Notes: a model not told the origin generated them from the sequence alone. Counted from the stretch's first letter, positions 1 through 32,740 are shown. The stretch is 64,000 nt of DNA from an uncultured Clostridia bacterium (GCA_947589235.1 CANQAX010000002.1:9054-73053), one strand, 5' to 3'. Made by a program: numbers and translations.

Positions 1-241
1 TGATTTCGGCGATTGCGTCTTTGAGTTGTTTTATGTACGCCTCCTTTACAGTATTCCCATGTACGGGAATCGGTATTTTTTTGTGAGTTTGAGAATGTCG
101 AATCGCTACCCCGTGCCCACCGTTTCCTGTTACCTTTTCAAAACCGAAATGCTTTGCGATCAAAAAGAATTCGTCAAACGTAAAATCGTTCGGAATGGGG
201 ATGCGAAAAAACTTATCAATCAATTTTTGCGTAGTAGACAA
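1..241 (-). CDS. HicA-like type II toxin (YcfA/HicA mRNA interferase family), 3' end runs off the window
   Basis: Hand translation of the minus strand from TTG at 241, with a GGAGGAG RBS at 247-253: MSTTQKLIDKFFRIPIPNDFTFDEFFLIAKHFGFEKVTGNGGHGVAIRHSQTHKKIPIPVHGNTVKEAYIKQLKDAIAEI... The G-G-H ... IPxH ... L pattern fits HicA toxins. It is absent from the ORF track because no stop lies in the window. Confidence 0.5.
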   Translation of the reverse strand, partial: MSTTQKLIDKFFRIPIPNDFTFDEFFLIAKHFGFEKVTGNGGHGVAIRHSQTHKKIPIPVHGNTVKEAYIKQLKDAIAEI

Positions 242-364
242 ATTTTCTCCTCCCTATTGGTATCATATACGGTATTACTTATTATATGCTTTTTTATTCG
301 GGTGTCAAGCAATTTTTAGTAATTTTTATGTGAATTGCTTCAAAGATCCGTTTTTGATTATTGA

Positions 365-889
365 AAATTTATTACGAACAGGAACGGAATAGCTTTTGAT
401 GTCAACCCCGCTGCTGTTGAGCTGACAAAAAAGAAATGTGCATTTGAATGCGACAGCGCCTCCACGATACAAATAAAGCAAGGCGACGCGCGGAACCTTG
501 ACTTGCCCGATAAATCGGTGGATTTGATTTGTACTCACCCACCGTATGCCGATATTATCCATTACAGCGAGGACATCGATGGCGATCTCTCGCTCCTTCC
601 AATGAAACCATTCCTGTCCGAAATGGGGAAAGTCGCAGGTGAAAGCTATCGCGTTCTGAAGAAGGACAAGTTCTGCGCCGTCCTCATGGGCGATACCCGT
701 AAAAACGGAATGGTTCAGCCACTCGCCTTTGAAGTCATGCGGCTTTTCGAGCTCGCAGGCTTTAAGACGAAGGAGATCATCATCAAAGAACAGCACAACT
801 GCAAAACAACAGGATATTGGAAAACGAACAGCATTAAGTTCAATTTCCTGTTACTTGCGCATGAGTACTTGTTTGTATTTAAGAAATAA
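365..889 (+). pseudogene. 5'-truncated SAM-dependent DNA (N6-adenine/N4-cytosine type) methyltransferase remnant
   Basis: The open frame after the stop at 362-364 reads ...NGIAFDVNPAAVELTKKK...GDARNLDLPDKSVDLICTHPPYADIIHYSEDIDGDLS... This carries the (D/N/S)PPY catalytic motif IV. The SAM-binding motif I is missing, and only a DPF... trace survives in another frame (ORF 195..392 ends KDPFLIIENLLRTGTE*). No plausible full-length start exists. Confidence 0.55.
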
Positions 890-941
890 AGCAAACATAC
901 CAAAGATATAATTCTATTTTACGGATAAACTAATTGACCAA

Positions 942-977
942 ACAGAGAAGTCGAGAGATTTGCTCTCGACTTCTCTG
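942..977. terminator. Bidirectional stem-loop between the methyltransferase remnant and the flavoprotein gene
   Basis: ACAGAGAAGTCGAGAG-attt-GCTCTCGACTTCTCTGT is a perfect long stem followed by TTTGA. The T-tract is short on both strands. Confidence 0.5.
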
Positions 978-1071
978 TTTGACTCGCCTAAAGGTGTATT
1001 CCGAAAAAAATTTTTGATTCCCCATGGAATACGCCTCTCCGGGGCGGGTCGTTTTTTTATCGGGTGAAATT

Positions 1072-1692
1072 TTATCGGATGAAATTCGTCGAGATCCTTC
1101 GCTCGGGGGCGGGGTATCCGATCCCCTTCTCCCTTCCCGCGGCGATGCACTTCAAGAGCCACGCCGCATTGCGCGCGAGGGTGCGCATGGTCTGGAGCCC
1201 CTCGCCGTCCCGCTTGACCTCTTCGGGCGTGTTCCCATGCACCTGATTCCAATACTGCGACGAGACGACGGGCATGCCCGATATCGTAAAGTACTTGTTG
1301 AGACGGTCGAACGCGGCGGTTGCGCCCCCGCGGCGGCAGCTGACGACCGCCGCCCCGATCTTCCCCGCCATCCGACCGCCGGCGGCGTAGAAGAGTCTGT
1401 CGAGAAAGGCGGTGAGCTGTCCGCTCGGACCCGCGTAGTACACGGGCGAGCCGACGATCATGCCGTCAAACTCATCGAGACGGGAAACGATCTCGTTGAC
1501 GCCGTCCGAAAAGGCGCATTTTCCCGCCGCATGGCACGCCCCGCAGGCGATACACCCCGCAACGGGCTTGTTTCCGATCCAAAAGGTCTCGCTCTCGACG
1601 CCCTCCTCGCGGAGGGTGCGGGCAACTTCGTCGAGCGCGGTCGCGGTGCAGCCCCTCTCATGCGGGCTTCCGTTGAGAAGAAGTAGTTTCAT
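1072..1692 (-). CDS. Flavodoxin-like fold NAD(P)H-dependent FMN reductase / iron-sulfur flavoprotein family
   Basis: ORF 1072..1833 trimmed to the ATG at 1692 (GGAGGAC RBS upstream). The protein reads MKLLLLNGSPHERGCTATALDEV...GSPVYYAGPSGQLTAFLDR..., typical of the NADPH-dependent FMN reductase family. Confidence 0.85.
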   Translation of the reverse strand: MKLLLLNGSPHERGCTATALDEVARTLREEGVESETFWIGNKPVAGCIACGACHAAGKCAFSDGVNEIVSRLDEFDGMIVGSPVYYAGPSGQLTAFLDRLFYAAGGRMAGKIGAAVVSCRRGGATAAFDRLNKYFTISGMPVVSSQYWNQVHGNTPEEVKRDGEGLQTMRTLARNAAWLLKCIAAGREKGIGYPAPERRISTNFIR

Positions 1693-1741
1693 TTTGTCCT
1701 CCATGTCGCTGTTTTCGTACCCCATTTCGGCAAAACGGGCA

Positions 1742-2584
1742 TTACACCCCCCGCTGATGGAAGTAGCGGAGATAGGATTTTCTGCAATACTTGCACACCT
1801 CGTCGTCGGTGGCGGGCTCGGCGGAGAAGGCATACTTCCCGTTCACGCGCCAACCGTTGAGGAGGGAGATCTTCAAGGCGTCCTCGGGGCAGGAAAACGC
1901 GCACGCCATGCACCCGACGCACGACTTGCCGAACTTCGGCTTGCCGTCCTCCATGCGGATATTCCCCTGCGGGCAGAGCTTCGCGCAGGCGCCGCACCCG
2001 ATACATTTTTCCGTCGGCTTGAACCGGTGCCCCAAGTGCGGCATGGCGGTGTGCTCGATGCGGAGAGCGAACGAGCCCATGCGCTTGAGGGGACCGATCC
2101 TCTTCCTTGCGCCGCCGAGCGAGAGCATCTCCTCGGCATCGGAAGGAAAAGCCGTTTCCGCCGCCTTCCACATGCGCGCCGCCATCCCCTCCGAGTGGCG
2201 GAAGATGATGTTATAGGGCATGACGTAGCGGTACTCGCCGATGACGGCGTAACCCCTCTTTTTCAAGATGCGGCGGGGGGAGACGGCGGACGCGTCGTTC
2301 ATGGCGAGCGGCTCGCCCGACGTGCGAACGAGATAGGCGGGGCGCTTTCCCTTCTCCTTGGGGAGGGATTTCAAAAATTTCAGGACAGACGCGGGCGCGT
2401 TGAACGCGTGGACGGGATATCCCACCACGAAGAGATCGTACGCGCGGGCGTCGGGATAGACGGAATCGGCGCGGATGGGCACGACGTCCGCCTCATGCCC
2501 GCGGGCGCGGAAGAGCTCCGCAAGGGCGGAACAGACGCGCGCCGTGTTGCCCGTTCCCGAGAACACCGCAAAGAGCGCCTTCAT
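1742..2584 (-). CDS. Flavodoxin-like domain fused to a 2x[4Fe-4S] ferredoxin domain (EFR1-type ferredoxin)
   Basis: The N-terminus MKALFAVFSGTGNTARV is flavodoxin-like. The C-terminus carries CIGCGACAKLCP and CVGCMACAFSCP cluster motifs. An ATGA start/stop overlap with the upstream gene at 2581-2584 indicates an operon. Confidence 0.8.
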   Translation of the reverse strand: MKALFAVFSGTGNTARVCSALAELFRARGHEADVVPIRADSVYPDARAYDLFVVGYPVHAFNAPASVLKFLKSLPKEKGKRPAYLVRTSGEPLAMNDASAVSPRRILKKRGYAVIGEYRYVMPYNIIFRHSEGMAARMWKAAETAFPSDAEEMLSLGGARKRIGPLKRMGSFALRIEHTAMPHLGHRFKPTEKCIGCGACAKLCPQGNIRMEDGKPKFGKSCVGCMACAFSCPEDALKISLLNGWRVNGKYAFSAEPATDDEVCKYCRKSYLRYFHQRGV

Positions 2585-4113
2585 TTCTCCCTCCTTGCCG
2601 TCGCGTTGCCCTCTTCGTCGAATCCGTAGAGGTAGCGCTCCTCTTTCCCGTGTGAATCATACCAGACCTGCGCGTAGAAGGGCATCTTCTCCGCGAGAAG
2701 GTCGAACCGCCACGGCGCGGGCATGCAGAAGGGGCACCAGTGCCCGCCCTTCAGAACGGTGTAGGGGCTCGCCTCGAAGGTGTGCCCCTCGCAGCACCGC
2801 CATGTGAGCTTGCGGTAGACGTCCCCCTTCTCCATCTCCTCGCTCAAAAGCTCTCCGCCGCGGAAGGCAGCGGCGCCCCGCATGTCCTCCGTATCCCACT
2901 CGGAGAGCGGCTTGCTCTCGTCGTAGCCGTGATCGAGAAGGCGGGCGTTCTCCCTGTCGCGCATGGCGTCATAGTCGCCGAAGTCCCCCTTCGCGATGAG
3001 CTTGACGCCCTCCCATCTGTCGGGGAGCGCCTTCGCCGCCTCCATGCTGCCGAAGGTCGCGATGACCCTCGCCTCGTCGCCGTTCTTTACCCAGCGGTAG
3101 GGAGAATTGGGGTGATTGCGGAGCCTGCGGAAGAGAAAGAGGTCGATGAGCCCGCGGGGGACGAACTTCCCGAGCGCATACAGCTTGTGCGCCCGCCCGA
3201 TCTCCTTCCAATATTCGTGCACGTCGTCGCGCTGATAGGAGAAGAGCTCCTCGAGCTCGCCCCCGTCGTAAAACCAGAGCCCGTGGAAGTTGCGCGTCGC
3301 GAGCCACTTGGGACGGAAGAACTTTTCCGCCGAGCCGCCGATGATGCCGAACCCGTCCTTGAAGGTGTCGTAGCCCGTCTCCATGCCCTTCTTCCCCGCG
3401 CCGATGTTGTAGATCTTCTTCCAGAATCCGGGGACCTCGCCCTTCCCGTCGCGCTCGAGAATGCGGCGGATGAGATACCCGCTGTCCCGCGAGGAGACCC
3501 ACTCGAGGGGCGCGTTGAGGGCGGTGTGGAACATGAGCCCGTCCGAGATGTTGTCGTGCATCATGTTGGGGTGGAGCATCGCCGTCTGCCGCAGAACCGC
3601 CCAGCAGTCGAGCTCCGCGTCGAGGCAATACCGCTCGCCGTACAGCTTGTCCATGGCATAGTGGTCGAAGGGACTGACGAGGAGAGGGTCCCCCACCCGC
3701 CCGAAGGGGTGCTTCTCGTTGCGGTTGCCGTACAGCGCGACGGTGGAGATGTGAATGTATTTGGGCTGCGGGGACTGCGCCTTCACGGCGTTGACGATGC
3801 ACATCGCGCCCTCGCGGTTGCATTTCTCGCTCGCCTCGGGGCTCGCGTCCGAGCGGGGCGGAATGACCGCCGCCATGTGCACGACGTAGTCCGTTCCCGC
3901 GACGAGCCGTTCGCACGCGACGGGGTCATGGAGCCAGCCGCGCACGATTTGGATCTTCTCCCCGTACGCCTTCCGAAGCCGCTTGGCGAGCTTGTTGTTC
4001 TTCTTTTTCGGCGTGAGCAGGACGCGGATCCACTCCACTTCCCGCAGGGTCATGCTCTGCGCGAGCGCTTCCCTGCCCATATTCCCGCTGACGCCCGTCA
4101 TGGCGATCTTCAT
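2581..4113 (-). CDS. NAD-dependent epimerase/dehydratase (extended SDR) family protein with a long C-terminal extension
   Basis: MKIAMTGVSGNMGRE is a Rossmann GxxGxxG-type N-terminus. VVHMAAV and ...Y..DKLYGER are SDR-like motifs. The protein is 510 aa, with a GAGGGT RBS before the ATG at 4113. Confidence 0.8.
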   Translation of the reverse strand: MKIAMTGVSGNMGREALAQSMTLREVEWIRVLLTPKKKNNKLAKRLRKAYGEKIQIVRGWLHDPVACERLVAGTDYVVHMAAVIPPRSDASPEASEKCNREGAMCIVNAVKAQSPQPKYIHISTVALYGNRNEKHPFGRVGDPLLVSPFDHYAMDKLYGERYCLDAELDCWAVLRQTAMLHPNMMHDNISDGLMFHTALNAPLEWVSSRDSGYLIRRILERDGKGEVPGFWKKIYNIGAGKKGMETGYDTFKDGFGIIGGSAEKFFRPKWLATRNFHGLWFYDGGELEELFSYQRDDVHEYWKEIGRAHKLYALGKFVPRGLIDLFLFRRLRNHPNSPYRWVKNGDEARVIATFGSMEAAKALPDRWEGVKLIAKGDFGDYDAMRDRENARLLDHGYDESKPLSEWDTEDMRGAAAFRGGELLSEEMEKGDVYRKLTWRCCEGHTFEASPYTVLKGGHWCPFCMPAPWRFDLLAEKMPFYAQVWYDSHGKEERYLYGFDEEGNATARREK

Positions 4114-4144
4114 TTGTTACCCTCGTAGAACTTTTAACTGTTTT

Positions 4145-4173
4145 AGTATAGTACAATCCGCGCGGCTTGTCAA
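4145..4173 (-). promoter_or_regulatory. SigA-type promoter of the SDR/ferredoxin/flavoprotein operon
   Basis: Minus strand: TTGACA (4173-4168), 17-nt spacer, TATACT (4150-4145). This lies about 30 nt upstream of the ATG at 4113. Confidence 0.6.
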
Positions 4174-4227: not shown

Positions 4228-4242
4228 GCCCCCGCCGATTGG
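4228..4242. repeat. Left copy of the 15-bp direct repeat GCCCCCGCCGATTGG flanking the AT-rich islet
   Basis: Identical 15-mer at 4228-4242 and 6544-6558. On the minus strand the left copy is followed by GGAGATTTTTTCC. Confidence 0.85.
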
Positions 4243-4401
4243 GCGGTGTTCGTGTGGATTCGGAATCGAACGGCTTGGCAATTGTATAGACCGCTTTTTT
4301 TTGCAACAAAAGCGGGCAAAATTTCTCTTTGAGGGGAAACAGGATAAGGATTGTGGGCATTCCTGCCCCGGTCGCCCCTTAACAGGCGGGAAACCCGCTC
4401 A

Positions 4402-4530
4402 TTATTTCTTTTTCGTCGAGTTCTTCTTTTTCGCATAGTACGCGGCAATTGCCGCTTTTTGTTTTTTCCGCGCCTCCGGAGTTTTGGCTTTTACATAGCT
4501 ACTTCTCTTTTTTTCTTTATTGAAGAACAT
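4402..4530 (-). CDS. Possible 42-aa highly basic peptide
   Basis: The ATG at 4530 overlaps the end of the 4517..5287 gene. The peptide reads MFFNKEKKRSSYVKAKTPEARKKQKAAIAAYYAKKKNSTKKK*. A small hairpin GCGGGaaaCCCGC (4386-4398) follows. There is no clear RBS, so this is speculative. Confidence 0.25.
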   Translation of the reverse strand: MFFNKEKKRSSYVKAKTPEARKKQKAAIAAYYAKKKNSTKKK

Positions 4531-5287
4531 TCTGTTCGCCCTCCATGCTTACAACTGCTTCAAAGTCGCATTCGTCACAGTAAGCCTGCAATCGCTCTAT
4601 TAGTCTTTCACTCGGCTTGAATTTTTGTTTTATGAAATAGACATCCTGCATATCGTACAGCGGTGTTGCCGCGATCTTACATTCGTTGATATCATAAAAT
4701 ACGCAGTAATTTCCGAGGTCTGTCCAATATCCGTAAAAATAATCAAACGCGAATACTTTGTGTCGCTCATTTGTTTCTTTGCTTCGGAAATATAATATCC
4801 GATATTTACAGCAAGCAGTAGAAAAAATATCCAGTTCCCTGTCGAATATCAACGCTTCCCTTTTGTATAACGGAAGCATACTATATTCATTCAGCAATCC
4901 GCGGATATATACGGATACCTCTTGTGCCGTTATCATGGTCTCCGACGTTTCTATTTCATCAAAGACGGAAATGTTTTCTTTTGAAGGACGGATCCAAATG
5001 GATTCTTCCAGTTTTTCCAGATCCTCATCGTTGAAATACACCCTGTCAATGACGGTGTTTACGGCGTTATAGATATTTTCACTGTCTGTCCGATTGTATT
5101 CGGTCTTTAATATTTTTTCGATTTGGTTGCGTCGTTCTTTGCGCACTTCCACGAGCGTGGGAATGAGCTTATTCAAAAGCCCATTCTTATTTGACTTTCC
5201 GTTTTTTGTAAATTCACAGCGCAGCGCGTCGATTTCCAAAATGTTCGCCACAAAGGACGAAACCTTCACTTTGATTTTGTCTTTCAT
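4517..5287 (-). CDS. Hypothetical protein, possibly a WYL-like ligand-sensing regulator
   Basis: ORF 4517..5317 trimmed to the ATG at 5287 (GGAG RBS 8 nt upstream). It uses AT-rich codons. The C-terminal stretch YRILYFRSKETNERHKVFAFDYFYGYWTDLGNYCVFYDINECKIAATPLYDMQDVY loosely follows the WYL-domain beta pattern. No family could be assigned confidently. Confidence 0.7.
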   Translation of the reverse strand: MKDKIKVKVSSFVANILEIDALRCEFTKNGKSNKNGLLNKLIPTLVEVRKERRNQIEKILKTEYNRTDSENIYNAVNTVIDRVYFNDEDLEKLEESIWIRPSKENISVFDEIETSETMITAQEVSVYIRGLLNEYSMLPLYKREALIFDRELDIFSTACCKYRILYFRSKETNERHKVFAFDYFYGYWTDLGNYCVFYDINECKIAATPLYDMQDVYFIKQKFKPSERLIERLQAYCDECDFEAVVSMEGEQNVLQ

Positions 5288-5308
5288 TCGGTAACTCCTA
5301 TCATTCAC

Positions 5309-5337
5309 ATTATACAAACTGTCTACCCATATATCAA
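5309..5337 (-). promoter_or_regulatory. Consensus promoter for the 4517..5287 gene
   Basis: Minus strand: TTGATA (5337-5332), 17 nt, TATAAT (5314-5309). The spacer contains the repeated box GGTAGACA (TGTCTACC on the plus strand). Confidence 0.6.
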
Positions 5338-5402
5338 GAAAATATAGATAAATCGTAAATATTGTCTACCATAAAACCCGAAATACGGCAGACGGAATTT
5401 TG

Positions 5403-5431
5403 TTGAAGTGCAAGTATTTTTTTGCTATAAT
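5403..5431 (+). promoter_or_regulatory. Consensus promoter for the 5491..6485 three-gene operon
   Basis: TTGAAG (5403-5408), 17 nt, TATAAT (5426-5431). Confidence 0.6.
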
Positions 5432-5490
5432 GAAAATGTAAGCGGAGCAAGGCGCCCCTCTGCTTGACAAAATTTAAGGAAGGTATTAAA

Positions 5491-5865
5491 ATGAGTATAG
5501 TTGGTTTTTTGCTTAAGCCAAAAAAAGAAATGGCGAAAAAAAATACGAAGTATGTAAGGGTCGGTAAATACCATCTGACTTCCCATGCGCAGAACCGGAT
5601 TGTTCAAAAGGAAAGAGCAATGGACAAGATCGATGTTTTGGACAATCTGTTTACAAAACCAAACGCCATTACGCAAGTGAAATACAATAAAAACGGCAAA
5701 CCCTCATATGATCGTGTGGGCAAGAGAATTACGACAAGTATAAATCCAACAAACAACAATGTTGCGACTTGCCGACCTGTAAGTAAAAAAGAAATGAAAC
5801 AATTCGGCTTGACCGATATCGGGAAAAAAGGAGGAAAAAGGAAATATGTTAAGCGAAAGTCTTAA
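5491..5865 (+). CDS. Hypothetical basic protein, weak DUF4258 / BECR-fold RNase-toxin-like pattern
   Basis: ATG at 5491 after an AAGGAAGG RBS. The protein reads MSIVGFLLKPKKEMAKKNTKYVRVGKYHLTSHAQNRIVQKERAMDKIDVLDNLF...YDRVGKRITTSINPTNNNVATCRPVS... and ends in a lysine-rich tail. The H..HA..R ... D.L ... T.I.P...V.T pattern resembles DUF4258-type toxins, from memory only. Confidence 0.7.
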   Translation: MSIVGFLLKPKKEMAKKNTKYVRVGKYHLTSHAQNRIVQKERAMDKIDVLDNLFTKPNAITQVKYNKNGKPSYDRVGKRITTSINPTNNNVATCRPVSKKEMKQFGLTDIGKKGGKRKYVKRKS

Positions 5866-6121
5866 AAGCAGATTTACGCCGAGAGCAAAAGAGGAAGCCA
5901 AAAAACTTTTATCCGAAATGAAGATAGCGGAGTTGAACGACGACAACCTCTATGAGGTCGAAGTCGAGCTTGACACAAGGGTAAGCGGATTGGTCACGAT
6001 GAATGAATGTGAACATCAACCGATAGATCATGAGCTTTTGGACATCTACGATACACTGACGGATATTATTCTTGAGCACGAAGAAGAGATAAATTTCCTG
6101 AACAAGTTGTTTTTGGAATAA
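5846..6121 (+). CDS. Hypothetical small acidic protein
   Basis: Strong RBS AAAGGAGGAAAAAGGAAAT before the ATG at 5846. It overlaps the previous gene by 20 nt. The protein is 91 aa and rich in D/E (…NDDNLYEVEVELD…EHEEEINFLNKLFLE). Confidence 0.7.
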   Translation: MLSESLKSRFTPRAKEEAKKLLSEMKIAELNDDNLYEVEVELDTRVSGLVTMNECEHQPIDHELLDIYDTLTDIILEHEEEINFLNKLFLE

Positions 6122-6164
6122 AAGAAAAAGGGAATGGGGCGGCAAAAAAATTTCGGAGGAAATT

Positions 6165-6485
6165 ATGAAAAAAAGAAATAAAAAGACAGAACAAGAAGCG
6201 CCGCTCTTTTGCGTCAGTGAAGAAGCAATTGATTTTATTCGCACATACATCCTTCCCGTTAAACATATCGACTTTATAGACGAGGATATATTTTATGATA
6301 TTTTTGAAATTGCGGAAAGCTGGGAACTCGATATGATCGACGAAGACGGATTTGACAAAACAGATGATCCGTTTATAGAACGGGATACAATGGGAATGAA
6401 TTTCGTCTCTGAAATATCGGGGCAAGACGCCGAGCCGGATCTCGACGACCTGAACCGCCGTTTGGGATTGCGCAAAACAAATTAA
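6165..6485 (+). CDS. Hypothetical small acidic protein
   Basis: RBS GGAGGAAATT before the ATG at 6165. The protein is 106 aa and very acidic (…IDEDIFYDIFEIAESWELDMIDEDGFDKTDDPFIE…AEPDLDDL…). Confidence 0.7.
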   Translation: MKKRNKKTEQEAPLFCVSEEAIDFIRTYILPVKHIDFIDEDIFYDIFEIAESWELDMIDEDGFDKTDDPFIERDTMGMNFVSEISGQDAEPDLDDLNRRLGLRKTN

Positions 6486-6543
6486 ACAACCGGGCAAGAG
6501 CGTGTCCCGATTAAACCCTTGTCTTTATGATTCCCCATGGAAT

Positions 6544-6565
6544 GCCCCCGCCGATTGGCGGGGGC
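6544..6565. terminator. Perfect hairpin GCCCCCGCC-gatt-GGCGGGGGC; includes the right copy of the 15-bp direct repeat
   Basis: On the plus strand it is followed by AATTTTTCATTTCTTTT, which terminates the islet operon. On the minus strand it begins 6 nt after the tex stop but lacks a U-tract. Confidence 0.7.
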
Positions 6566-6571
6566 AATTTT

Positions 6572-8746
6572 TCATTTCTTTTCGGGTCTGTCCTTCCGCA
6601 TCGTGAGGGAGATGCGCCCGCGCCTCTCGTCGACGTCGAGCACGCGGACGGTGACGACGTCCCCCACCGAGAGCACCTCGGACGGGTGGCGGATATAGCG
6701 GTCGCCGATCTCGGAGATGTGCACGAGCCCGTCCTGATGGACGCCGATGTCGACGAACGCGCCGAAGTCGATGACGTTCCGCACCGTTCCCCTCAACTCC
6801 ATGCCCCTCTTCAAGTCCTTGATCTCGAGCACGTCCGTCCGCAGAACGGGCGCGGGGAGCTCGTCGCGCGGGTCCCGCCCCGGCTTCATGAGTTCGCCGA
6901 TGACGTCGTACAGCGTGGGAAGCCCTACGCCGCACTCCTTTGCCGCCCGCTCGTCCCCGTAGTCATGGAGACGCTCGCGGAGGTGACCGATTTTCCCCGC
7001 CCGCACCTCGGACATGGTATAGCCGCAGAGCGCGAGGAGCTTCTCCGCCGCCCCGTAGCTCTCGGGGTGGACGGCGGTGTTGTCGAGCACCTCTTCGCTC
7101 TCGGGCACGCGCAGGAAGCCCGCGCATTGCTCGAATGCCTTGTCCCCGAGCCCCTTCACCTTGCGGAGGGCGCGCCGCGAGCGGAAGGGACCGTTCTCCT
7201 CGCGGTACTTCACGATGTTCTCCGCGACGCTCGCGTTGAGCCCCGCAACGTGCGAGAGAAGGGGCGCGGAAGCCGTGTTGACGTCCACGCCGACGGCATT
7301 CACGCAGTCCTCCACGACGCCGCCGAGCGCCTGCGAGAGCCGCTTTTCGGGCATGTCGTGCTGATATTGCCCGACGCCGATGGACTTGGGCTCGATCTTG
7401 ACGAGCTCGGCGAGCGGGTCCTGCAGCCGCCGCGCGATGGAGACCGCGGAGCGGAGATTGACGTCGAAGTCGGGGAACTCGCGCGCCGCGAGCGGGGAAG
7501 CGGAATAGACGGACGCGCCCGCCTCGTTCACGATGATATAGGAGAGGTCGGGCAGGCGGAGGGACGAGATGAGTTCCACCGTCATGCGCTCCGTCTCGCG
7601 GCTCGCCGTGCCGTTTCCGATGGCGATGTGCTTGACGCCGTGTCTCTTGATGAGGTCGGAGAGCTTTCCGATGCACTCCCTCTTCTGCCGCTCCCCGTGG
7701 GTGGGATAGACGACCGCGGTGTCGAGCACCTTGCCCGTGCCGTCGACGACGGCGACCTTGCACCCCATGCGGTAGCCGGGGTCGAGCCCCATGGTGACGA
7801 ATCCCTTGACGGGCGGCTGCATGAGGAGGGGGCGCAGGTTGAGGGCGAACTGCCCGATCGCGCCCTCGGACGCCCGCTCGAAGAGGGCGGCGCGCACCTC
7901 GCGCTCGAGGCTCGGCTCGATGAGGCGGTCGTAGGCGTCCTCACAGCAGGCGCGGACAAAGGACGTCGCGGCGCACGGCTTTCCCACCATGCGGCGGACG
8001 GCGAGCGCGACCGCGTACTCGTGCGGGATCTCGACGCCGACGCGGAGGATTTCCTCCCGCTCCCCGCGGAATGCCGCGAGCACCTGATGCCCCGCGACGG
8101 AGGAGACGGGCGCCGAGAAGTCATAGTAGTTGCGGTAGACGGTGTCCTCGGGGTCCTTCTTCGCCGCCGAGGAGCGGAGCACGCCGTGCGCCATGGCGAA
8201 TTCGCGGAGCGATTTGCGGAGCGCCGCGTCCTCCGAGATCCGCTCGGCGATGATGTCGCCCGCGCCCGCAAGCGCCTCCTCCGCGCTCTCCACCCCCTTC
8301 TCGGGGTCGATGTAGTCCCGTGCTGCGGCAAGGGGAAGCGGGACGTCGGGCTGCTGCGCGAAGAGAAGATCGGCGAGCGGCTCCAGCCCCTTCTCCCTTG
8401 CAATCGTGGCGCGGGTGCGGCGCTTCTGCTTGTACGGGCGGTATAAATCTTCGACCTCGGCGAGCGTCGCGGCGCCGTCGATGCGGGCGGAGAGCTCTTC
8501 GGTGAGCTTCCCCTGCCCCTCGATTGCCCGCTTTACCTCGGTGCGGCGGGCTTCCAACCCGCGGAGGTACTCGAGCCGCTCGGACAGGGAACGGATGGTT
8601 TGGTCGTCCGTCGCGCCGTGCATTTCCTTGCGGTAGCGCGCAATGAAGGGGACGGTGTTCCCCTCGTCGAGCAGGGAGACGATGTTTTTGACGTGCTCCT
8701 CGCTCTTGTGAAATTCTTCGGCTAAAATCTGTACAACATTCGGCAT
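6572..8746 (-). CDS. tex: Tex-like transcription accessory protein (YqgF/HhH/S1 domains)
   Basis: ORF 6572..9016 trimmed to the ATG at 8746. The protein begins MPNVVQILAEEFHKSEEHVKNIVSLLDEGNTVPFIARYRKEMHG... and ends in an S1 domain ...GTVRNVIDFGAFVDIGVHQDGLVHISE.... Confidence 0.92.
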   Translation of the reverse strand: MPNVVQILAEEFHKSEEHVKNIVSLLDEGNTVPFIARYRKEMHGATDDQTIRSLSERLEYLRGLEARRTEVKRAIEGQGKLTEELSARIDGAATLAEVEDLYRPYKQKRRTRATIAREKGLEPLADLLFAQQPDVPLPLAAARDYIDPEKGVESAEEALAGAGDIIAERISEDAALRKSLREFAMAHGVLRSSAAKKDPEDTVYRNYYDFSAPVSSVAGHQVLAAFRGEREEILRVGVEIPHEYAVALAVRRMVGKPCAATSFVRACCEDAYDRLIEPSLEREVRAALFERASEGAIGQFALNLRPLLMQPPVKGFVTMGLDPGYRMGCKVAVVDGTGKVLDTAVVYPTHGERQKRECIGKLSDLIKRHGVKHIAIGNGTASRETERMTVELISSLRLPDLSYIIVNEAGASVYSASPLAAREFPDFDVNLRSAVSIARRLQDPLAELVKIEPKSIGVGQYQHDMPEKRLSQALGGVVEDCVNAVGVDVNTASAPLLSHVAGLNASVAENIVKYREENGPFRSRRALRKVKGLGDKAFEQCAGFLRVPESEEVLDNTAVHPESYGAAEKLLALCGYTMSEVRAGKIGHLRERLHDYGDERAAKECGVGLPTLYDVIGELMKPGRDPRDELPAPVLRTDVLEIKDLKRGMELRGTVRNVIDFGAFVDIGVHQDGLVHISEIGDRYIRHPSEVLSVGDVVTVRVLDVDERRGRISLTMRKDRPEKK

Positions 8747-9608: not shown

Positions 9609-9785
9609 TTGCGATTGCTTCCGTTCGTCGCTGCGCCTTTTCCGCACGCTTTTGCGAATGGTCCCGTTCGCCGCTGCGTCTTCTCCGCACGCTTTTGCGA
9701 TTGCTTCCGTCCGCCGCTGCGGCTTTCCCGCACGCTTTTGCGAATGGTCCCGCTCGCCGTTTCGGCTTCTCGGATTTGATATTCC
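9609..9785. repeat. Tandem array, 43-bp period, about 4 units alternating two subtypes
   Basis: TTGCGA anchors sit at 9609, 9652, 9695 and 9738. A typical unit is TTGCGATTGCTTCCGTTCGTCGCTGCGCCTTTTCCGCACGCTT. Confidence 0.85.
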
Positions 9786-9879
9786 TCTTTTTTGTACCCC
9801 ATTCCGACGTTTTTCTAACACGGGTCGGAAAAATTCCTTTTGCTTTCGTGTGAATCAAATATTCCAACCCCCTCCCCTA

Positions 9880-10303
9880 CCCCTCCCCCTTACAAAGGGG
9901 GAGGGCAAGATATGGTACCCATACCCCTCCCCCTTACGAAGGGAGAGGGCAAGATATGGTACCCTACCCCTCCCCCTTGCGAAGGGGGAGGGGTAGGGTA
10001 CCCATCGCCCCTCGTAAAGGGACAAGAAGAGACAGGAGCACACGCCCCCTCCATTGGAGGGGTGGAGCGGCGCACCATGTTCAACAGCCCAGTGGGCTGT
10101 GAACGCGCCGCGACAGGAGCGCAGGAAAGCGCGACGGGGATTCGGCGGTCCCTGCCGCCGAATCGCCCGCAAGGGCGGGGGTGGGCTGAACGCGAGCGAA
10201 TCGCGGGGTTTCCGTCATTTCGACGACGCGTAGCGGCGCACGAGCCATACGACTTGTCATTTCGACGACGCGTAGCGGCGCACGAGCGAACCGCTGGGTT
10301 TCT
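9880..10303. repeat. Cluster of GC-rich hairpin words plus partial GTCATTTCGA units
   Basis: CCCCTCCCCCTTACAAAGGGGGAGGG-type palindromes occur three times at 9885-10000. GTCATTTCGACGACGCGTAGCGGCGCACGAGC occurs at 10213 and 10256. Confidence 0.8.
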
Positions 10304-10455
10304 GTCATTTCGAGCGGAGCGGAGTATCGCATGAGCCACGGGCGAATGCGATACGGAGCGAAGTCGAGAAATCTATGCTCAAGAGTGCAGAGTGGTTTCG
10401 TTTATTCTCAATAAGGTTGAGATGTCTCGACTACGCTCGACATGACATTATTGTA
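10304..10455 (+). repeat. Copy 1 of a ~150-nt structured dispersed element
   Basis: TGTCATTTCGAGCG (10304-10317) pairs with CGCTCGACATGACA (10434-10447). GTATCGCAT pairs with ATGCGATAC (10324/10346). GTCGAGAAATCT pairs with AGATGTCTCGAC (10363/10420). Other copies lie at 26511, 26896(-), 36257 and 48535(-). Confidence 0.85.
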
Positions 10456-10543
10456 CGCCGTATCGTGACACAAGCCGCGGCGGGACGACATGACACTATT
10501 GTGCGTCGGGACGGAACACATGCCACGGCAAAACAATACGAAA

Positions 10544-30192: not shown

Positions 30193-32682
30193 TCAAGAAA
30201 CCGCGGATCCAAATTCGAGAGAAGTCATCAATCCCGACATGATTGCCGCCTCTTTTTCCGGACAAATGCACGCCAATATATTTGCCAAAGTGTTGATTAC
30301 TCTATCGATATATGCCCCGGGGCTCTTACGATACAATTCGATGTACAATAGGATAGAATCAGTATAACTTTTCAACGCCTCACTTGTTTTGTTAAATTTC
30401 AGGTACGCATCGCCGAAATGATTGCACGTGCGGGCAAGTTCATTGGAAAAGGAAAACTGCTTATATATTTGCTTGGCAGCGAGATAATTTTCCTCTGCGC
30501 CATTCAGTTCCCTCTTTTGGACAAACAACTCGGCAAAAAGACAATGGATCGCCGCGAGTTCCGCATCCGAACTTTGACCTGCGAATGACAAAATTCTCCG
30601 TTGCATCCGCGCTCCTTCTTTGAGAAATTGTTCTGCTCGATTGAGATCCCCCGTCTGCAAATACAGTTCGGCAAGATTTTTATACGCTTCGACAACGCTC
30701 CTTTCGTTTGCTTCCGGATTTTGCTGTGCCATTTTTTGCCGTATCTTCAATGATTGCAAACACCACGCTTCGATCATGTCCGTATCTATCTTCTTACGAT
30801 AATACGAAAAATCCGTGATTGGAGGATCCTCCTTGTCGAAAACCGCAGCGTCGATTTTTTTGCTACATGCTGCAAACTTTTTCGCATCCTTCTCGTCCCC
30901 GTAATTTGTGTACTCGCGTGACAAGATTTCGCATATCAATTTCAACAGCGACGCAAACGCTTGGGCTTTGTCTCGCTTTGTTTTATGCTGCATGAGCGCG
31001 TAACGCAATTTGAACGCCTCGACAAAATAGCGATCCTTTTGCCTATGCGATAAAATCGCGCAATTGATATGCGCCAATCTGGCACTGATATCGGCCACAT
31101 ATTTTTCATAATCGGCATGCGTTTTTATGAGAATGTTGCATACATCGAGCGCTTCTTTCAGCAAATCTTCCGCCTCGCGGTGCCGATTCGTTTGATAATA
31201 CAGTTCCGCAAGCCAAATATTGATGTCCGCCTTTTTGATCTGCTTTTCATCGGTCTCATCAGCAAAATCGTAAATTATCAATGCGTCGCGGTATAACGCT
31301 TCCGCACGCGCATGCCGATTGAGACAATAATATACTTTGGCGAGATCGATACATGAATCCGCATAGTCGAATTTGAAACTCGAATCTGCTTGAGACAATT
31401 CCCTTCTTATCTGTACGCAACGCGACAAGATATTATCTGCTTCTTGGTATTTGCCGAGTTTATAATATGCCAACCCGCAAAGATTTTCGGCATCTCCTTT
31501 GCGCCTTTTCCCATTGATATCGTCCGTTTTGAAAAACAAATCGAGTGAAAGACAAACCGAGATGCACTTTTCATACTGCGTCTGTTGAAATAAAAATAAC
31601 GCATATTCATACATAACTTTTTTGGGCATCTGCGGGCGGTTTTCGACTTGCTCCACCGCTTTGATATAATTTGCATGAACCTCGTCCCAACGCGCCTGCG
31701 CTTTTAGCGCAAGAATTCGCATACGGTATTCTTCTACGATTGCAATTCTTTCTCCGATAACATTTTTTTCCATCTCATCCAATTCTGCCACGTTGTTCTC
31801 AATATCCGCAACATTCAGCGCTTCGAGAACTCCGTCATAATCGCCAGAATCGAAACACTTGATTGCTTTTCTTATATTATCCGAAATCGCTTTACCGCTT
31901 GTTGTGAGCGATACGATGCTGTTTCCGATATCCAAGATATTCCCCGCCAGTTCATCAATATCTGCTTTCAATCTATCCCTTTCTTTTGCCGCTTTGCTCA
32001 ATTCGCGGTATACTTTGTAATTCCCCTCATCCGCCGCATACATTGCCTGTAATCTTTGGCTATTTTCCACCGCCTTCGTATAGTTCTCCCAAAGTTCGGT
32101 ATATTCTGCATTCTCGGCAAAAAGCGGGATGCGCCCCACCGGGATGATGCTGCTATCGGCGCACACAATAGCGTTGTCCTTCACGGTTATATCGGCTTTT
32201 ACAAAACCGTGCACCTGTAATTGAGTAATGATCCCCAATTTCAATGAATCAATATGCGAGTACTCCCTGTGATAGTGCAACAGTTCCTCATCGATCATGC
32301 GCATTACATTTTTGATTTCTTCGGAGGGGTCCTCATCTGCCGTCGTTTTTTTGAAATATACTACGATCTTCGGCTTGTTGCAAATTCGATTGGAATCGAG
32401 CGCGATCTTAAGTTCGTGAAATGTAACCTCTCCCACCTTATGCCAAAAAATAACGAAGCACATGTCCGAGCCTTGAATGAGTTCATCTAACGATGCTTGC
32501 GATCCTTCAATGCGAATTGAGTGATCCATCGTATCGCTTTCACATTTGTACAACTTGATAAAGATCCCGGATTCTTGATAGATATTGTTCAGTTGGTTGA
32601 TAAAATCGCCTATCGCAAGACGATCATATTCCAAATCCGTGATGGAAGATGCCAAGAAAAATGTTACGGTTTTTTTATCCAT
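30193..32682 (-). CDS. TIR-like/DUF4062-like N-terminal domain + coiled coil + multi-TPR protein (829 aa) in an AT-rich island
   Basis: ORF 30193..32781 trimmed to the ATG at 32682. The N-terminus is MDKKTVTFFLASSITDLEYDRLAIGDFINQL...IKLYKCES...CFVIFWHKVGEVTFHELKIAL...KPKIVVYFKK. A coiled-coil stretch follows (…KAAKERDRLKADIDELAGN…). There are at least 6 TPR-like units (LAYYKLGKYQEADNIL, LAKVYYCLNRHARAEALY, LAELYYQTNRHREAEDLL, LAELYLQTGDLNRAEQFL ...). Confidence 0.85.
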   Translation of the reverse strand: MDKKTVTFFLASSITDLEYDRLAIGDFINQLNNIYQESGIFIKLYKCESDTMDHSIRIEGSQASLDELIQGSDMCFVIFWHKVGEVTFHELKIALDSNRICNKPKIVVYFKKTTADEDPSEEIKNVMRMIDEELLHYHREYSHIDSLKLGIITQLQVHGFVKADITVKDNAIVCADSSIIPVGRIPLFAENAEYTELWENYTKAVENSQRLQAMYAADEGNYKVYRELSKAAKERDRLKADIDELAGNILDIGNSIVSLTTSGKAISDNIRKAIKCFDSGDYDGVLEALNVADIENNVAELDEMEKNVIGERIAIVEEYRMRILALKAQARWDEVHANYIKAVEQVENRPQMPKKVMYEYALFLFQQTQYEKCISVCLSLDLFFKTDDINGKRRKGDAENLCGLAYYKLGKYQEADNILSRCVQIRRELSQADSSFKFDYADSCIDLAKVYYCLNRHARAEALYRDALIIYDFADETDEKQIKKADINIWLAELYYQTNRHREAEDLLKEALDVCNILIKTHADYEKYVADISARLAHINCAILSHRQKDRYFVEAFKLRYALMQHKTKRDKAQAFASLLKLICEILSREYTNYGDEKDAKKFAACSKKIDAAVFDKEDPPITDFSYYRKKIDTDMIEAWCLQSLKIRQKMAQQNPEANERSVVEAYKNLAELYLQTGDLNRAEQFLKEGARMQRRILSFAGQSSDAELAAIHCLFAELFVQKRELNGAEENYLAAKQIYKQFSFSNELARTCNHFGDAYLKFNKTSEALKSYTDSILLYIELYRKSPGAYIDRVINTLANILACICPEKEAAIMSGLMTSLEFGSAVS

Positions 32683-32698
32683 ATCTCTCTTTTGTGTA

Positions 32699-32735
32699 AA
32701 AAGAGGCCGTTTCCTTTCGGAACGGCCTCTTTTCT
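32699..32735. terminator. ppdK intrinsic terminator (bidirectional A-tract/T-tract hairpin)
   Basis: AAAAGAGGCCGTT-tcctttcg-GAACGGCCTCTTTT. Confidence 0.85.
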
Positions 32736-32740
32736 CTTGT

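Follow-up and report, generated by a model that had tools for sequence, protein, structure and literature searches.

The segment at positions 4243-6543 of the window (by which we mean the whole 64,000-nt stretch of DNA analysed) is probably a non-autonomous mobile cassette whose cargo is a toxin-immunity module under transcriptional gating, of the toxin-antitoxin or abortive-infection type. The cassette, which combines a regulator (P1), a small basic peptide (Psm) and a toxin-like protein with immunity partners (P2/immunity), is an uncharacterised family of gut Christensenellales. The module was found once per locus, in differing contexts, in 38 GTDB species, with flanking genes unrelated among nearly all of them, and its GC content (0.28-0.40) is at or below that of the flanks in every locus. 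Low GC, a chromosomal context that changes in nearly every species and the flanking duplications described below together argue for horizontal acquisition, as had been proposed for this islet in the original prediction.

Layout and composition of the cassette

The unit is compact (2.3 kb), with P1 and Psm transcribed divergently from P2, P3 and P4:

4228..4242, no strand: direct-repeat copy 1, GCCCCCGCCGATTGG, an exact 15-nt repeat; derived from the host terminator hairpin, part of which is duplicated
4243..4401, minus strand: right end of the cassette, non-coding; holds the Psm terminator hairpin and, at 4243-4263, a degenerate terminal inverted repeat (TIR)
4402..4530, minus strand: Psm, a lysine-rich ORF of 42 aa (pI 10.5) with a 14-nt overlap across the P1 stop
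4517..5287, minus strand: P1, 256 aa (pI 5.05), a predicted RHH-type DNA-binding and WYL (Sm-like beta-barrel, ~residues 164-219) protein
5309..5337, minus strand: predicted P1 promoter, TTGATA-17-TATAAT; its spacer holds the GGTAGACA operator box
5364..5393, no strand: predicted operator inverted repeat, GTCTGCC-N16-GGTAGAC, separating the two divergent promoters, a short distance upstream of the P2 -35 element
5403..5431, plus strand: predicted toxin operon promoter, TTGAAG-17-TATAAT, TG-extended
5491..5865, plus strand: P2, 124 aa, basic (pI 10.46)
5846..6121, plus strand: P3, 91 aa, acidic (pI 4.42), overlapping P2 by 20 nt
6165..6485, plus strand: P4, 106 aa, very acidic (pI 4.23)
6486..6543, no strand: left end of the cassette, non-coding; holds TIR GATTCCCCATGGAAT at 6529-6543
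6544..6558, no strand: direct-repeat copy 2, inside the complete host hairpin (6543-6566) and its T-run

Along the window, GC is 0.36-0.40 over ~4250-6500 and 0.62-0.70 in the flanks. ORFs P1 to P4 were all found where the original prediction had placed them, the 20-nt overlap of P2 and P3 proved exact, and the computed pI values bore out the basic/acidic/acidic order proposed for the three-gene operon. The unit is as real and as compact as had been thought, but a fifth gene had been overlooked (Psm, our label for the 42-aa ORF at 4402-4530), and the whole is a TIR-bounded cassette rather than a mere islet. The range reported at that time begins at 4402, yet the gene lying there went unlisted. 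Purifying selection acts on each of the five ORFs, with dN/dS of 0.07-0.11 for P1, 0.03-0.13 for Psm, 0.06-0.27 for P2, 0.11-0.15 for P3 and 0.13-0.32 for P4.

None of the window proteins had a match at a meaningful E-value in Pfam, PHROGs, PADLOC or NCBIfam, and the curated libraries gave no name to any protein of the cassette, none exceeding a family threshold, which agrees with the original prediction, where none of the four proteins had been placed in a family with confidence. Profile and structure searches placed none of these proteins in housekeeping or phage-structural families, and an Rfam scan of the window returned neither a CRISPR repeat nor any other RNA family. In the surroundings of the cassette, the neighbours of P1 are Tex, a 510-aa epimerase-like gene and the toxin operon.

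The regulator P1, its companion peptide and the predicted operator

Homologues of P1 amount to 341 cluster representatives (67-91% identity), and searches of a phage database, a plasmid database and IMG/VR returned no match. The AF2 model of P1, of low confidence (pLDDT 59), consists of an RHH-like N-terminus (strand at residues 5-10, helix, helix), a strand followed by helices, and then a barrel (strands within 164-219), with one helix only C-terminal of the barrel and neither a winged-HTH N-terminal domain nor a WCX C-terminal domain. Foldseek with this model gave RspWYL1 (6oaw) as the best PDB match (E 9e-7, 290 columns), with further matches to DriD, PafBC, BrxR and CapW at probability 1.0; the alignment covered 91 columns of the DriD C-domain (rmsd 3.0) and 76 columns of BrxR (rmsd 2.2). 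The window P1 had no match to Pfam WYL (PF13280) at E<=1, and two distant homologues matched it below the cut-off of 21.8 (L048, E 1.4e-3, 19.1 bits; L047, E 2.6e-2, 15.0 bits), both at residues 165-228, which are equivalent to the P1 barrel. Because of the pLDDT of 59, the WYL assignment rests on local fold similarity and on these sub-threshold matches in relatives. Taken with operator boxes in the divergent promoter region, they support a WYL-type regulator with a predicted RHH+WYL fold as in WYL1, DriD and BrxR, in line with the WYL-like pattern first noticed in the C-terminal segment of P1.

A GTAGACA box is present within the P1 promoter spacer at 38 of 41 loci, and the repeat GTCTACC-N16-GGTAGAC recurs at 30 of the 41, including L048, where the P1 homologue is only 36% identical. 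On the 3' side of the toxin operon promoter, comparison across loci revealed a conserved 5'-UTR hairpin (~5438-5466), past which a second promoter pair (TTGACA-17-TAAAAT) is found at 5464-5492. We infer that the conserved boxes form an operator overlapping the promoter of P1 itself, suited to P1 autoregulation and control of the toxin operon. By binding the three GTAGAC boxes that lie between these promoters, P1 would both autoregulate the P1-Psm operon and gate the P2 operon. DriD, CapW and BrxR respond to ssDNA. By analogy with these three and WYL1, the WYL barrel of P1 may sense a nucleic-acid or stress signal arising from phage infection or DNA damage, and this signal would change expression of the toxin operon.

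By tblastn, 35 of the 38 GTDB loci have Psm immediately downstream of P1, and the companion peptide of P1 is basic and 42-45 aa long across loci. Psm is translationally coupled to P1 and part of an invariant core, and it may be an obligatory partner of P1.

P1 is similar to BrxR (BREX), CapW (CBASS), DriD (bapE/didA) and PafBC in its predicted Sm-like WYL barrel, and it resembles WYL defence regulators in being divergent from a toxic or defence operon, in having an operator conserved over its own promoter and in going with interchangeable defence cargo. It differs from those regulators in an N-terminus that is RHH-like rather than a winged HTH, in the lack of a recognisable WCX-type C-terminal domain, in a Pfam WYL score below threshold for the window protein, and in its constant pairing with a 42-45-aa basic peptide.

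The best fold match raises another possibility. RspWYL1, which accompanies Cas13d as an accessory in type VI-D CRISPR systems, is of RHH-RHH-WYL architecture; it binds ssRNA and enhances the Cas13d RNase (PMC6547453). With P1 it has in common RHH motif(s) followed by a WYL domain, a clostridial host and an RNase effector partner (predicted here), so that P1 could resemble WYL1 in binding ssRNA and in directly stimulating or targeting the predicted RNase (P2), instead of working mainly as a transcription factor. The match extends over 290 columns, the predicted layout is similar (strand-helix-helix, strand-helices, barrel), and the neighbouring effector is itself a predicted RNase. We nonetheless judge such a role unlikely, since the GTAGAC boxes lie exactly in and between the promoters, the core also accompanies non-RNase cargo (the AbiEii nucleotidyltransferase), P1 lacks the C-terminal domain of WYL1 (256 aa versus 387 aa) and confidence in the P1 model is low. 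Whereas RspWYL1 disfavors dsDNA, the conserved boxes in and between promoters suggest that P1 binds a dsDNA operator. P1 is also 130 aa shorter and without the dimerising C-terminal domain, HMMER detected no sequence similarity between the two proteins, and the cassette has neither a CRISPR array nor cas13d; no cas genes are adjacent to P1 in the related loci examined in detail.

The predicted RNase toxin and its acidic partners

P2, whose homologues comprise 141 cluster representatives, has an alternative TTG start at 5464 that yields the 133-aa form used by ENA gene callers. Most of the loci listed have an intact toxin gene, L015 and L021 being exceptions. H32, Q34, N35, K46, Y73, R75, G77, T81, T82, N85 and P86 are invariant, and the motif H-A-x-x-R is present as SHAQNR. 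The model of P2 (pLDDT 90.7) has as its top fold matches CdiA-CT NC101 (probability 0.98), colicin E5, colicin D and RelE; small-domain PDB matches are mostly BECR RNases, the best three included (5i4r/5i4q, 3ao9, 3vj7, 1tfo, 1v74, 1wmi), and are modest throughout (E 0.02-1.4, best ~0.02; TM 0.42-0.56). A P2 profile matched 337 representatives. Among them are phage head/portal, RHS and CdiA-type proteins of 290-793 aa, matched over their C-terminal ~80 aa and with Phage_Mu_F, Phage_min_cap2, Phage_portal, RHS, DUF637 or TPR at their N-termini, and in those fusions Pfam calls DUF4258 at the same coordinates as the P2-profile match. The link between P2 and DUF4258 is therefore transitive, via proteins whose P2-matched segment is called DUF4258; the window P2 had no match to PF14076 at E<=1, and a P2-like member in L039 matched DUF4258 directly but below the cut-off of 25 (E 9e-3, 16.7 bits).

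Model, fold matches and profile reach all support the likeness to DUF4258/BECR toxins suggested in the original prediction, and P2 is best described as a predicted RNase toxin that consists of a DUF4258/Ntox49 domain with the BECR fold, divergent in sequence and standalone. As a colicin-like BECR domain, it would cleave tRNA, rRNA or mRNA and so arrest translation; its RNase activity is extrapolated from the fold, because DUF4258 has no characterised member (PMC11980606). With DUF4258 (PF14076)/Ntox49 colicin-like BECR toxins P2 shares the modelled fold, the H-A-x-x-R motif and a small acidic partner downstream. Unlike them, it stands alone behind a conserved ~25-aa N-terminal leader and scores below the Pfam threshold. 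For DUF4258 toxin-antitoxin modules, Gerdes lists the gene order A/T (PMC11980606), whereas in the cassette the toxin precedes its partner and P2 is under a separate WYL protein, P1, and not under its own antitoxin.

The partner genes covary with the toxin. Where P2 has at least 60% identity (subtype A), a P3-like gene is next in 9/9 loci with a downstream gene called; where identity is 43-50% (subtype B), a P4-like gene is next in 11 of 13 loci, no other partner being called in the remaining two. P4 carries a conserved C-terminal motif (D-L-D-D-L-N-R-R-L-G-L). Neither P3 nor P4 has a recognisable fold or family, nor a DNA-binding family or motif. P3, translationally coupled to P2, is the predicted cognate immunity protein or antitoxin of the P2 subtype in the window and would keep basal toxin harmless. 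P4 is probably the partner of the other subtype, present here as an orphan or extra immunity gene; it would neutralise a different P2 and may have been kept after cargo exchange. The small acidic proteins had been taken as partners of the basic one, and co-occurrence of the four genes had been put forward as a check: each acidic protein does covary with its own P2 subtype, and P1, P2 and P3 do occur together, but P4 is not a constant member. An adjacent, covarying protein partner and the 20-nt P2/P3 overlap recall type II toxin-antitoxin modules, from which the cassette differs in that P3 and P4 lack a DNA-binding domain, regulation apparently being delegated to P1.

CdiA/RHS-type proteins carry DUF4258-like domains as toxin modules at their C-termini, P4 resembles an orphan immunity gene, and the leader MSI(L/F)xFL(L/F)KxKK is common to P2 and to a 169-aa protein of L043, although their toxin domains are unrelated. 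These features would suit an inter-bacterial polymorphic toxin locus, with P2 exported or delivered to competitors and P3/P4 as immunity. Relatives of the P2 domain do have N-terminal delivery fusions of the kind seen in CDI/RHS/LXG polymorphic toxins, but the 124-aa P2 has none: no Pfam delivery domain (secretion, LXG, RHS, PT-HINT) is fused to it, only the leader. Secretion-system genes are absent from the cassette, and a system that acts inside the cell is suggested both by control through a WYL regulator and by the substitution of AbiE at this slot, which makes a role in competition very unlikely.

The fusions of P2-domain relatives to phage portal and head-morphogenesis proteins, together with decay in some loci (P2 is frameshifted in L009/L015, and a truncated P4 remnant was also seen), could mean that the segment is a functionless remnant of a prophage or island, its toxin likeness stemming from a phage-head-associated DUF4258 lineage. 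This reading is hardly credible given the strong purifying selection on all five genes and the 341 P1 and 141 P2 cluster representatives with conserved architecture and operator; moreover, no phage genes are adjacent, neither the phage database nor IMG/VR gave a match, and the unit has defined ends and a compact size.

Cargo exchange, cassette ends and insertion into terminators

P1, Psm and the operator form the invariant core, and the slot divergent from it holds exchangeable cargo: the two P2 subtypes, other toxin-like pairs and AbiEi/AbiEii. Alternative cargo behind the core includes c12+c6 pairs (c-numbers are BLAST clusters made in this study) and, in L043, the 169-aa protein mentioned above. 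In L048 the slot is occupied by AbiEi/AbiEii (E 1e-8 and 7e-39), and the core therefore serves Abi-type cargo. AbiE, a type IV toxin-antitoxin and abortive-infection system, thus takes the same slot behind a P1-like/Psm-like core and operator; the cargo in the window is unrelated to it, with a BECR RNase-like domain in place of a nucleotidyltransferase.

Inverted terminal pairs (CATAGGGAAT / ATTCCCTATG) bound the module in L012, L014, L016, L017 and L028. Some 165 nt of the right end is conserved among the window (WIN), L012, L014, L016, L017 and L046, stopping no more than 3 nt short of the direct repeat. The window has an intact left TIR and a degenerate right one (3 mismatches in 10); relatives show the consensus ATTCCCTATG. 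The left end is abutted by an A-tract and hairpin, and the right end by a partial hairpin and T-run, as on the minus strand of direct-repeat copy 1. Host-specific flanking duplications (13-37 nt exact, up to ~48-65 nt imperfect) were detected in five loci: 15 nt in WIN, 14 nt in L032, 13 nt in L044, 18/~65 nt in L013 and 37/~48 nt in L035; those of L012 and L016 are decayed (~7-17 nt). As read from these junctions, the module splits host intrinsic terminators and lodges inside them. The host hairpin at 6543-6566 with its T-run now terminates the toxin operon (fold -21.6 kcal/mol, z -5.2), and we propose that each outward-facing operon inherits a terminator because insertion occurs at a bidirectional terminator hairpin and partly duplicates it. 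The cassette encodes no transposase, we retrieved no empty insertion site and identified no cognate transposase or autonomous partner; mobilisation would take place in trans, by a transposase encoded elsewhere.

A second low-GC cassette end lies at the start of the window, with subterminal homology to the L012/L017 ends:

1..1030, plus strand: second cassette end, with a 16-nt terminus (TGATTCCCCATGGAAT, 1015-1030) identical to that of the present cassette
2-241, minus strand: HicA-like ORF, cargo of the second cassette
395-889, plus strand: DNA methylase fragment, cargo of the second cassette

Ends of the same type also flank restriction-modification genes. Tentatively, and as something possible rather than probable, we propose that Christensenellales harbour a family of mobile defence cassettes, not described before, that nest in terminators. 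Its members would be bounded by TIRs and devoid of a transposase, would insert at bidirectional intrinsic terminator hairpins and partly duplicate them, and would carry a sensor core (RHH-WYL protein, obligatory 42-aa basic peptide, three-box operator) behind which toxin-immunity, AbiE and possibly restriction-modification cargo is swapped.

While the cassette may serve in phage defence, it could also be a purely selfish addiction module that is stabilised by post-segregational killing, with P1 as an ordinary autorepressor and no part in phage defence. We give this a minor, though appreciable, chance. The toxin-then-antitoxin gene order and tight coupling would suit addiction, as would mobility without other obvious benefit, the lack of a PADLOC match for the window proteins and a toxin gene that is usually intact (L015 and L021 excepted). 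However, WYL regulators are characteristically signal-responsive, and the matches to DriD, CapW and BrxR suit a system that can be induced. AbiE, known for abortive infection, is driven by this regulatory core as well, and restriction-modification genes are flanked by ends of this type. Addiction and defence are in any case not mutually exclusive.

As a mobile element, the gated toxin-immunity cassette is most readily compared with non-autonomous TIR elements such as mobile insertion cassettes (MICs), which lack a transposase and carry passenger genes between short TIRs with target duplications; in the IS4 group, elements of the IS1634 type make long, variable duplications. The cassette differs from these elements in the irregular length of its duplications (~7 to 48 nt or more), in its specific target, an intrinsic terminator hairpin, and in the invariant regulatory core shared by most copies. 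Like MICs, it has short TIRs, flanking duplications of target sequence, passenger genes and no transposase, and in a similarly MIC-like manner at least two related ends occur in one 64-kb window and the same type of end is found on different cargo.

Genes of the islet

The islet is best read as a small, non-autonomous mobile cassette that carries a signal-gated toxin-immunity module of the TA/Abi type. The original prediction had placed all four of its ORFs (P1 to P4) exactly; its range begins at 4402 but leaves unnamed the fifth ORF that lies there, Psm.

Genes of the islet (positions in the window)
4402..4530, minus strand: Psm, 42 aa, lysine-rich, pI 10.5, 14-nt overlap with the P1 stop
4517..5287, minus strand: P1, putative WYL-type regulator, 256 aa
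5491..5865, plus strand: P2, predicted toxin, 124 aa (133 aa if a TTG start at 5464 is used)
5846..6121, plus strand: P3, 91 aa, 20-nt overlap with P2
6165..6485, plus strand: P4, 106 aa

P1, P2, P3, P4 and Psm are real genes; pairwise comparison with relatives gave dN/dS values of 0.03-0.32 for the five ORFs, and a decayed remnant is scarcely credible as an account of the islet. Computed pI values of 10.46 (P2), 4.42 (P3) and 4.23 (P4) bear out the basic/acidic/acidic order proposed for the operon, and the islet forms a sharp compositional island, with a GC of 0.36-0.40 against 0.62-0.70 in both flanks. Searches of Pfam, PHROGs, PADLOC and NCBIfam returned nothing meaningful for any of the five proteins, in keeping with the earlier inability to place any of the first four in a named family. 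Relatives of P3, P4 and Psm outside the module were not detectable, and Pfam gave no match to variants of P3 and P4 or to the alternative cargo proteins of BLAST clusters c12 and c6. All P4-like proteins (cluster c3; for example, window 6165-6485) share the C-terminal motif D-(L/F)-D-D-L-N-(K/R)-R-L-G-L and are divergent in sequence outside it. Neither tRNA genes nor Rfam families were found in scans of the 64-kb window, which thus gives no sign of tRNA-linked integration or of a known RNA gene.

The putative regulator and the predicted toxin

Homologues of P1 comprise 341 cluster representatives (67-91% identity, none of them named) from Clostridia/Christensenellales gut MAGs, and their alignment is very conserved. 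The AlphaFold model of P1, of moderate confidence only (pLDDT 59), predicts a strand-helix-helix unit, then another strand and its helices, a barrel of five strands (residues 164-219) and, at the C-terminus, a helix; Foldseek matched it best to 6oaw_B (E 9e-7 over 290 columns) and next to DriD, PafBC, BrxR and CapW. The predicted fold places P1 with WYL proteins, probably as the WYL-like regulator first suggested, and independent support comes from its two most distant relatives, L048 (36% identity) and L047 (46%), in which residues 165-228 match Pfam WYL just below threshold. A sequence-profile search of the PDB with the P1 alignment gave chance-level matches only. Structure 6OAW is RspWYL1, an ssRNA-binding protein with RHH motifs, a WYL domain and a C-terminal domain (PMC6547453), and P1 might likewise act in a WYL1-like role as a direct accessory of the RNase, which we regard as improbable; we favour P1, together with Psm, as a putative sensor-regulator. 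Two other identities for P1 were rejected: a serine recombinase, to which an invariant S10 following a beta strand might point, since Resolvase is not matched and the folds are RHH/WYL, and an HUH Rep protein, since none of its histidines is conserved.

P2 has 141 homologues, across which H32, Q34, N35, K46, Y73, R75, G77, T81, T82, N85 and P86 are invariant. Its structure model is confident (pLDDT 90.7), and its best PDB folds, namely the CdiA-CT tRNase of E. coli NC101 (probability 0.98), colicin E5, colicin D and RelE, are all BECR-fold RNases, with modest E-values; as a PDB sequence-profile query, the P2 alignment gave matches at chance level only. Among 1.84 billion representatives searched, the P2 profile had 337 matches, including the C-terminal ~80 residues of proteins of 290-793 aa. 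Ten of these long proteins were scanned, their N-termini carrying Phage_min_cap2, Phage_Mu_F, Phage_portal, DUF637, RHS or TPR, and in seven Pfam called DUF4258 at the P2-matched segment. By these profile and fold links, P2 is a divergent standalone DUF4258/Ntox49 domain and a predicted RNase, which agrees with the DUF4258/BECR-toxin resemblance originally noticed. That P2 is instead an exported polymorphic toxin seems very improbable; in the favoured module it would be a BECR RNase toxin.

The DUF4258/Ntox49 lineage was recently assigned to the colicin-like BECR branch (bioRxiv 10.64898/2026.08.28.747851) and has no characterised member (PMC11980606). DUF4258 is widespread, occurring in phage head proteins and CDI/RHS toxins, and a signal-gated toxin-immunity cassette that joins a new RHH-WYL regulator family to a standalone DUF4258/Ntox49 RNase would be a tractable model for this uncharacterised toxin lineage. 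Residues 1-16 of P2 carry a leader, MSI(L/F)xFL(L/F)KxKK, that recurs in an unrelated protein of 169 aa occupying this slot at another locus (L043 4284-4793); the shared leader suggests either that recombination occurred immediately within the 5' end of the toxin gene or that the leader is a functional tag. Some homologues begin at M14 of P2, a nearly invariant residue, so a shorter isoform is possible.

Operator layout and exchangeable cargo

The divergent intergenic region between P1 and P2, of ~200 bp, has a layout conserved across the family.

Regulatory features (positions in the window)
5309-5337: P1 promoter, TTGATA-17-TATAAT, with a GTAGACA box within its spacer
5364-5393: inverted repeat GTCTACC-N16-GGTAGAC, present in 30 of 41 loci
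5403-5431: toxin-operon promoter, its -35 element abutted by the first operator box

The third box, GTAGACA in the P1 promoter spacer, occurs in 38 of 41 loci, and the operator boxes of L048, with its 36%-identical P1, are the same as in the rest of the family. Judged from sequence, this layout is as expected if P1 binds the boxes, regulates itself and gates the toxin operon. A purely addictive module is a rather unlikely alternative to the signal-gated one. The toxin mRNA leader (window 5438-5492, with equivalents in about 35 loci) holds a conserved hairpin, CAAGG...CCTTG, with a variable inner stem, and a second TTGAC(A/T)-17-TATAAT pair that ends at the P2 start codon.

Scanning one genome per GTDB species yielded 38 loci, one per genome, nearly all in MAGs labelled Christensenellales or 'Clostridia bacterium' and derived from the gut of rabbits, deer, sheep, goats and humans. 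Psm lies downstream of P1 in 35 of the 38 (tblastn), and the divergent slot is variable, holding either a P2 of at least 60% identity and then a P3-like gene (9/9 called neighbours), or a P2 of 43-50% identity and then a P4-like gene (11/13 loci, no other partner called). P1, P2 and P3 are thus linked as anticipated, whereas P2, P3 and P4 stand together in only a few loci, the window among them. From this association of P2 subtype and partner, P3 is read as the cognate partner of the window P2, which it would neutralise, and P4 as a putative extra or orphan immunity gene remaining after cargo exchange.

At other loci the core is combined with different cargo: a pair of a basic (c12) and an acidic (c6) protein; in L043, the 169-aa protein with the N-terminal leader of P2; in L039, a DUF4258 of more canonical type (E 9e-3); and, divergent from the most distant P1/Psm homologue, a bona fide abortive-infection pair, AbiEi/AbiEii (L048 3300-4732; E 1e-8 and 7e-39). 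An invariant P1-Psm-operator core with swappable cargo, AbiE included, could guide the finding of new defence and toxin genes. Decay is seen in L009 and L015 (L009 ~7100-7830), where P2 is frameshifted and P4 is reduced to a 28-aa remnant abutting the end of a neighbouring 2-hydroxyacid dehydrogenase gene.

The cassette family is real, uncharacterised and taxon-restricted, and is classed with WYL-regulated toxin/defence cassettes and with passenger cassettes bounded by terminal inverted repeats. The nearest known systems are defence operons regulated by BrxR/CapW/DriD-type WYL proteins, WYL1, DUF4258 TA modules and mobile insertion cassettes; unlike all of these, the present family combines an RHH-type N-terminus and small size with an obligatory micro-peptide (Psm), separate regulator and antitoxin, and an insertion that splits a terminator. 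The cassette is a new defence candidate in an under-studied group, the Christensenellales, which are abundant in the gut, associated with health and for the most part uncultured. Within the reach of computation the original interpretation is supported, the function being a predicted one.

Probable insertion at terminators, and related ends

Module GC (0.28-0.40) is equal to or lower than that of the flanks (0.30-0.61) in every genome, and the flanking genes are unrelated between almost all species. Horizontal acquisition, as first proposed, is borne out by this low GC, the changing context and flanking duplications; a vertically inherited core gene was rejected on the persistently low GC and a context that differs in nearly every species. 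The islet is bracketed by two exact copies of a 15-nt direct repeat, GCCCCCGCCGATTGG, at 4228-4242 and 6544-6558, which delimit the element to 4243-6543. Flanking repeats at other loci are host-specific and variable in length.

Flanks of other loci
L013: exact repeat of 18 nt, imperfect over about 65 nt
L035: exact repeat of 37 nt, imperfect over about 48 nt
L032: repeat of 14 nt
L044: repeat of 13 nt
L008 and L022: split hairpins (inverted repeats)

Alignment of close relatives revealed defined element ends that lie no more than a few bases from these repeats, with the terminus motif (T)TCCATAGGGAAT and, in L012, L014, L016, L017 and L028, the terminal inverted repeat pair CATAGGGAAT / ATTCCCTATG. 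With P1 set on the plus strand, the window copy has an intact left end (GATTCCCCATGGAAT, 6529-6543) and a degenerate right end. The non-coding right end (window 4243-4401, ~160 nt, several hairpins) is conserved only in the window copy, L012, L014, L016, L017 and L046, and is only about 60 nt long in other subfamilies.

Host DNA at the left junction consists of an A-tract and a hairpin ending at the junction (-21.6 kcal/mol, z -5.2 in the window; -12.6, z -3.8 in L012), and at the right junction of a partial hairpin and a T-run, so that the target is apparently a bidirectional intrinsic terminator; a plus-strand terminator is predicted at 6543-6566. The toxin operon appears to run into the hairpin and T-tract on one strand, and P1-Psm into the duplicated half and T-run on the other.

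The cassette encodes no recombinase or transposase, from which we infer mobilisation in trans. Terminator splitting without a transposase of its own raises the question of how small defence cassettes move and stay transcriptionally insulated. An integron cassette or dif/Xer element was rejected because the repeats at the flanks are terminators particular to each host and unrelated in sequence, and a group IIC intron or IS200/IS605 element because reverse transcriptase and TnpA are absent and duplications present. P1 had no match in phage and plasmid databases or IMG/VR, leaving a phage or plasmid origin unsupported. The search for an empty site yielded none: the reconstructed junction pattern had 0 matches in the metagenome collection, the exact 510-aa neighbour protein had no database record, and the nearest Tex orthologue (78% identity) is followed by a different gene from that in the window.

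A second copy of the terminus closes a low-GC stretch at 1-1030 (GC 0.36-0.50), whose subterminal sequence is homologous over about 55 nt to the cassette ends of L012 and L017; the remainder of this element lies beyond the window.

Features of the second element (positions in the window)
2-241, minus strand: HicA-like ORF (E 6e-5)
395-889, plus strand: N6/N4 DNA-methylase fragment (E 2e-6)
1015-1030: identical terminus 16-mer, TGATTCCCCATGGAAT

The same end occurs at 526-571 of metagenome contig L053 (OFGN01004861.1), where it adjoins genes (620-4157) for an unknown protein of 282 aa and a ResIII helicase-nuclease of 889 aa, and thus apparently also flanks restriction-type cargo.

Elsewhere in the window, the intergenic region 9609-10529 contains several short tandem arrays (periods of 42-48 and 86 nt, 68-92% match) with strong negative GC and AT skew. 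A lower-GC stretch at 30193-32781 on the minus strand (GC 0.41-0.49) encodes a protein of 862 aa that has a distinct N-terminal domain besides TPR-like repeats, and may be another acquired gene.
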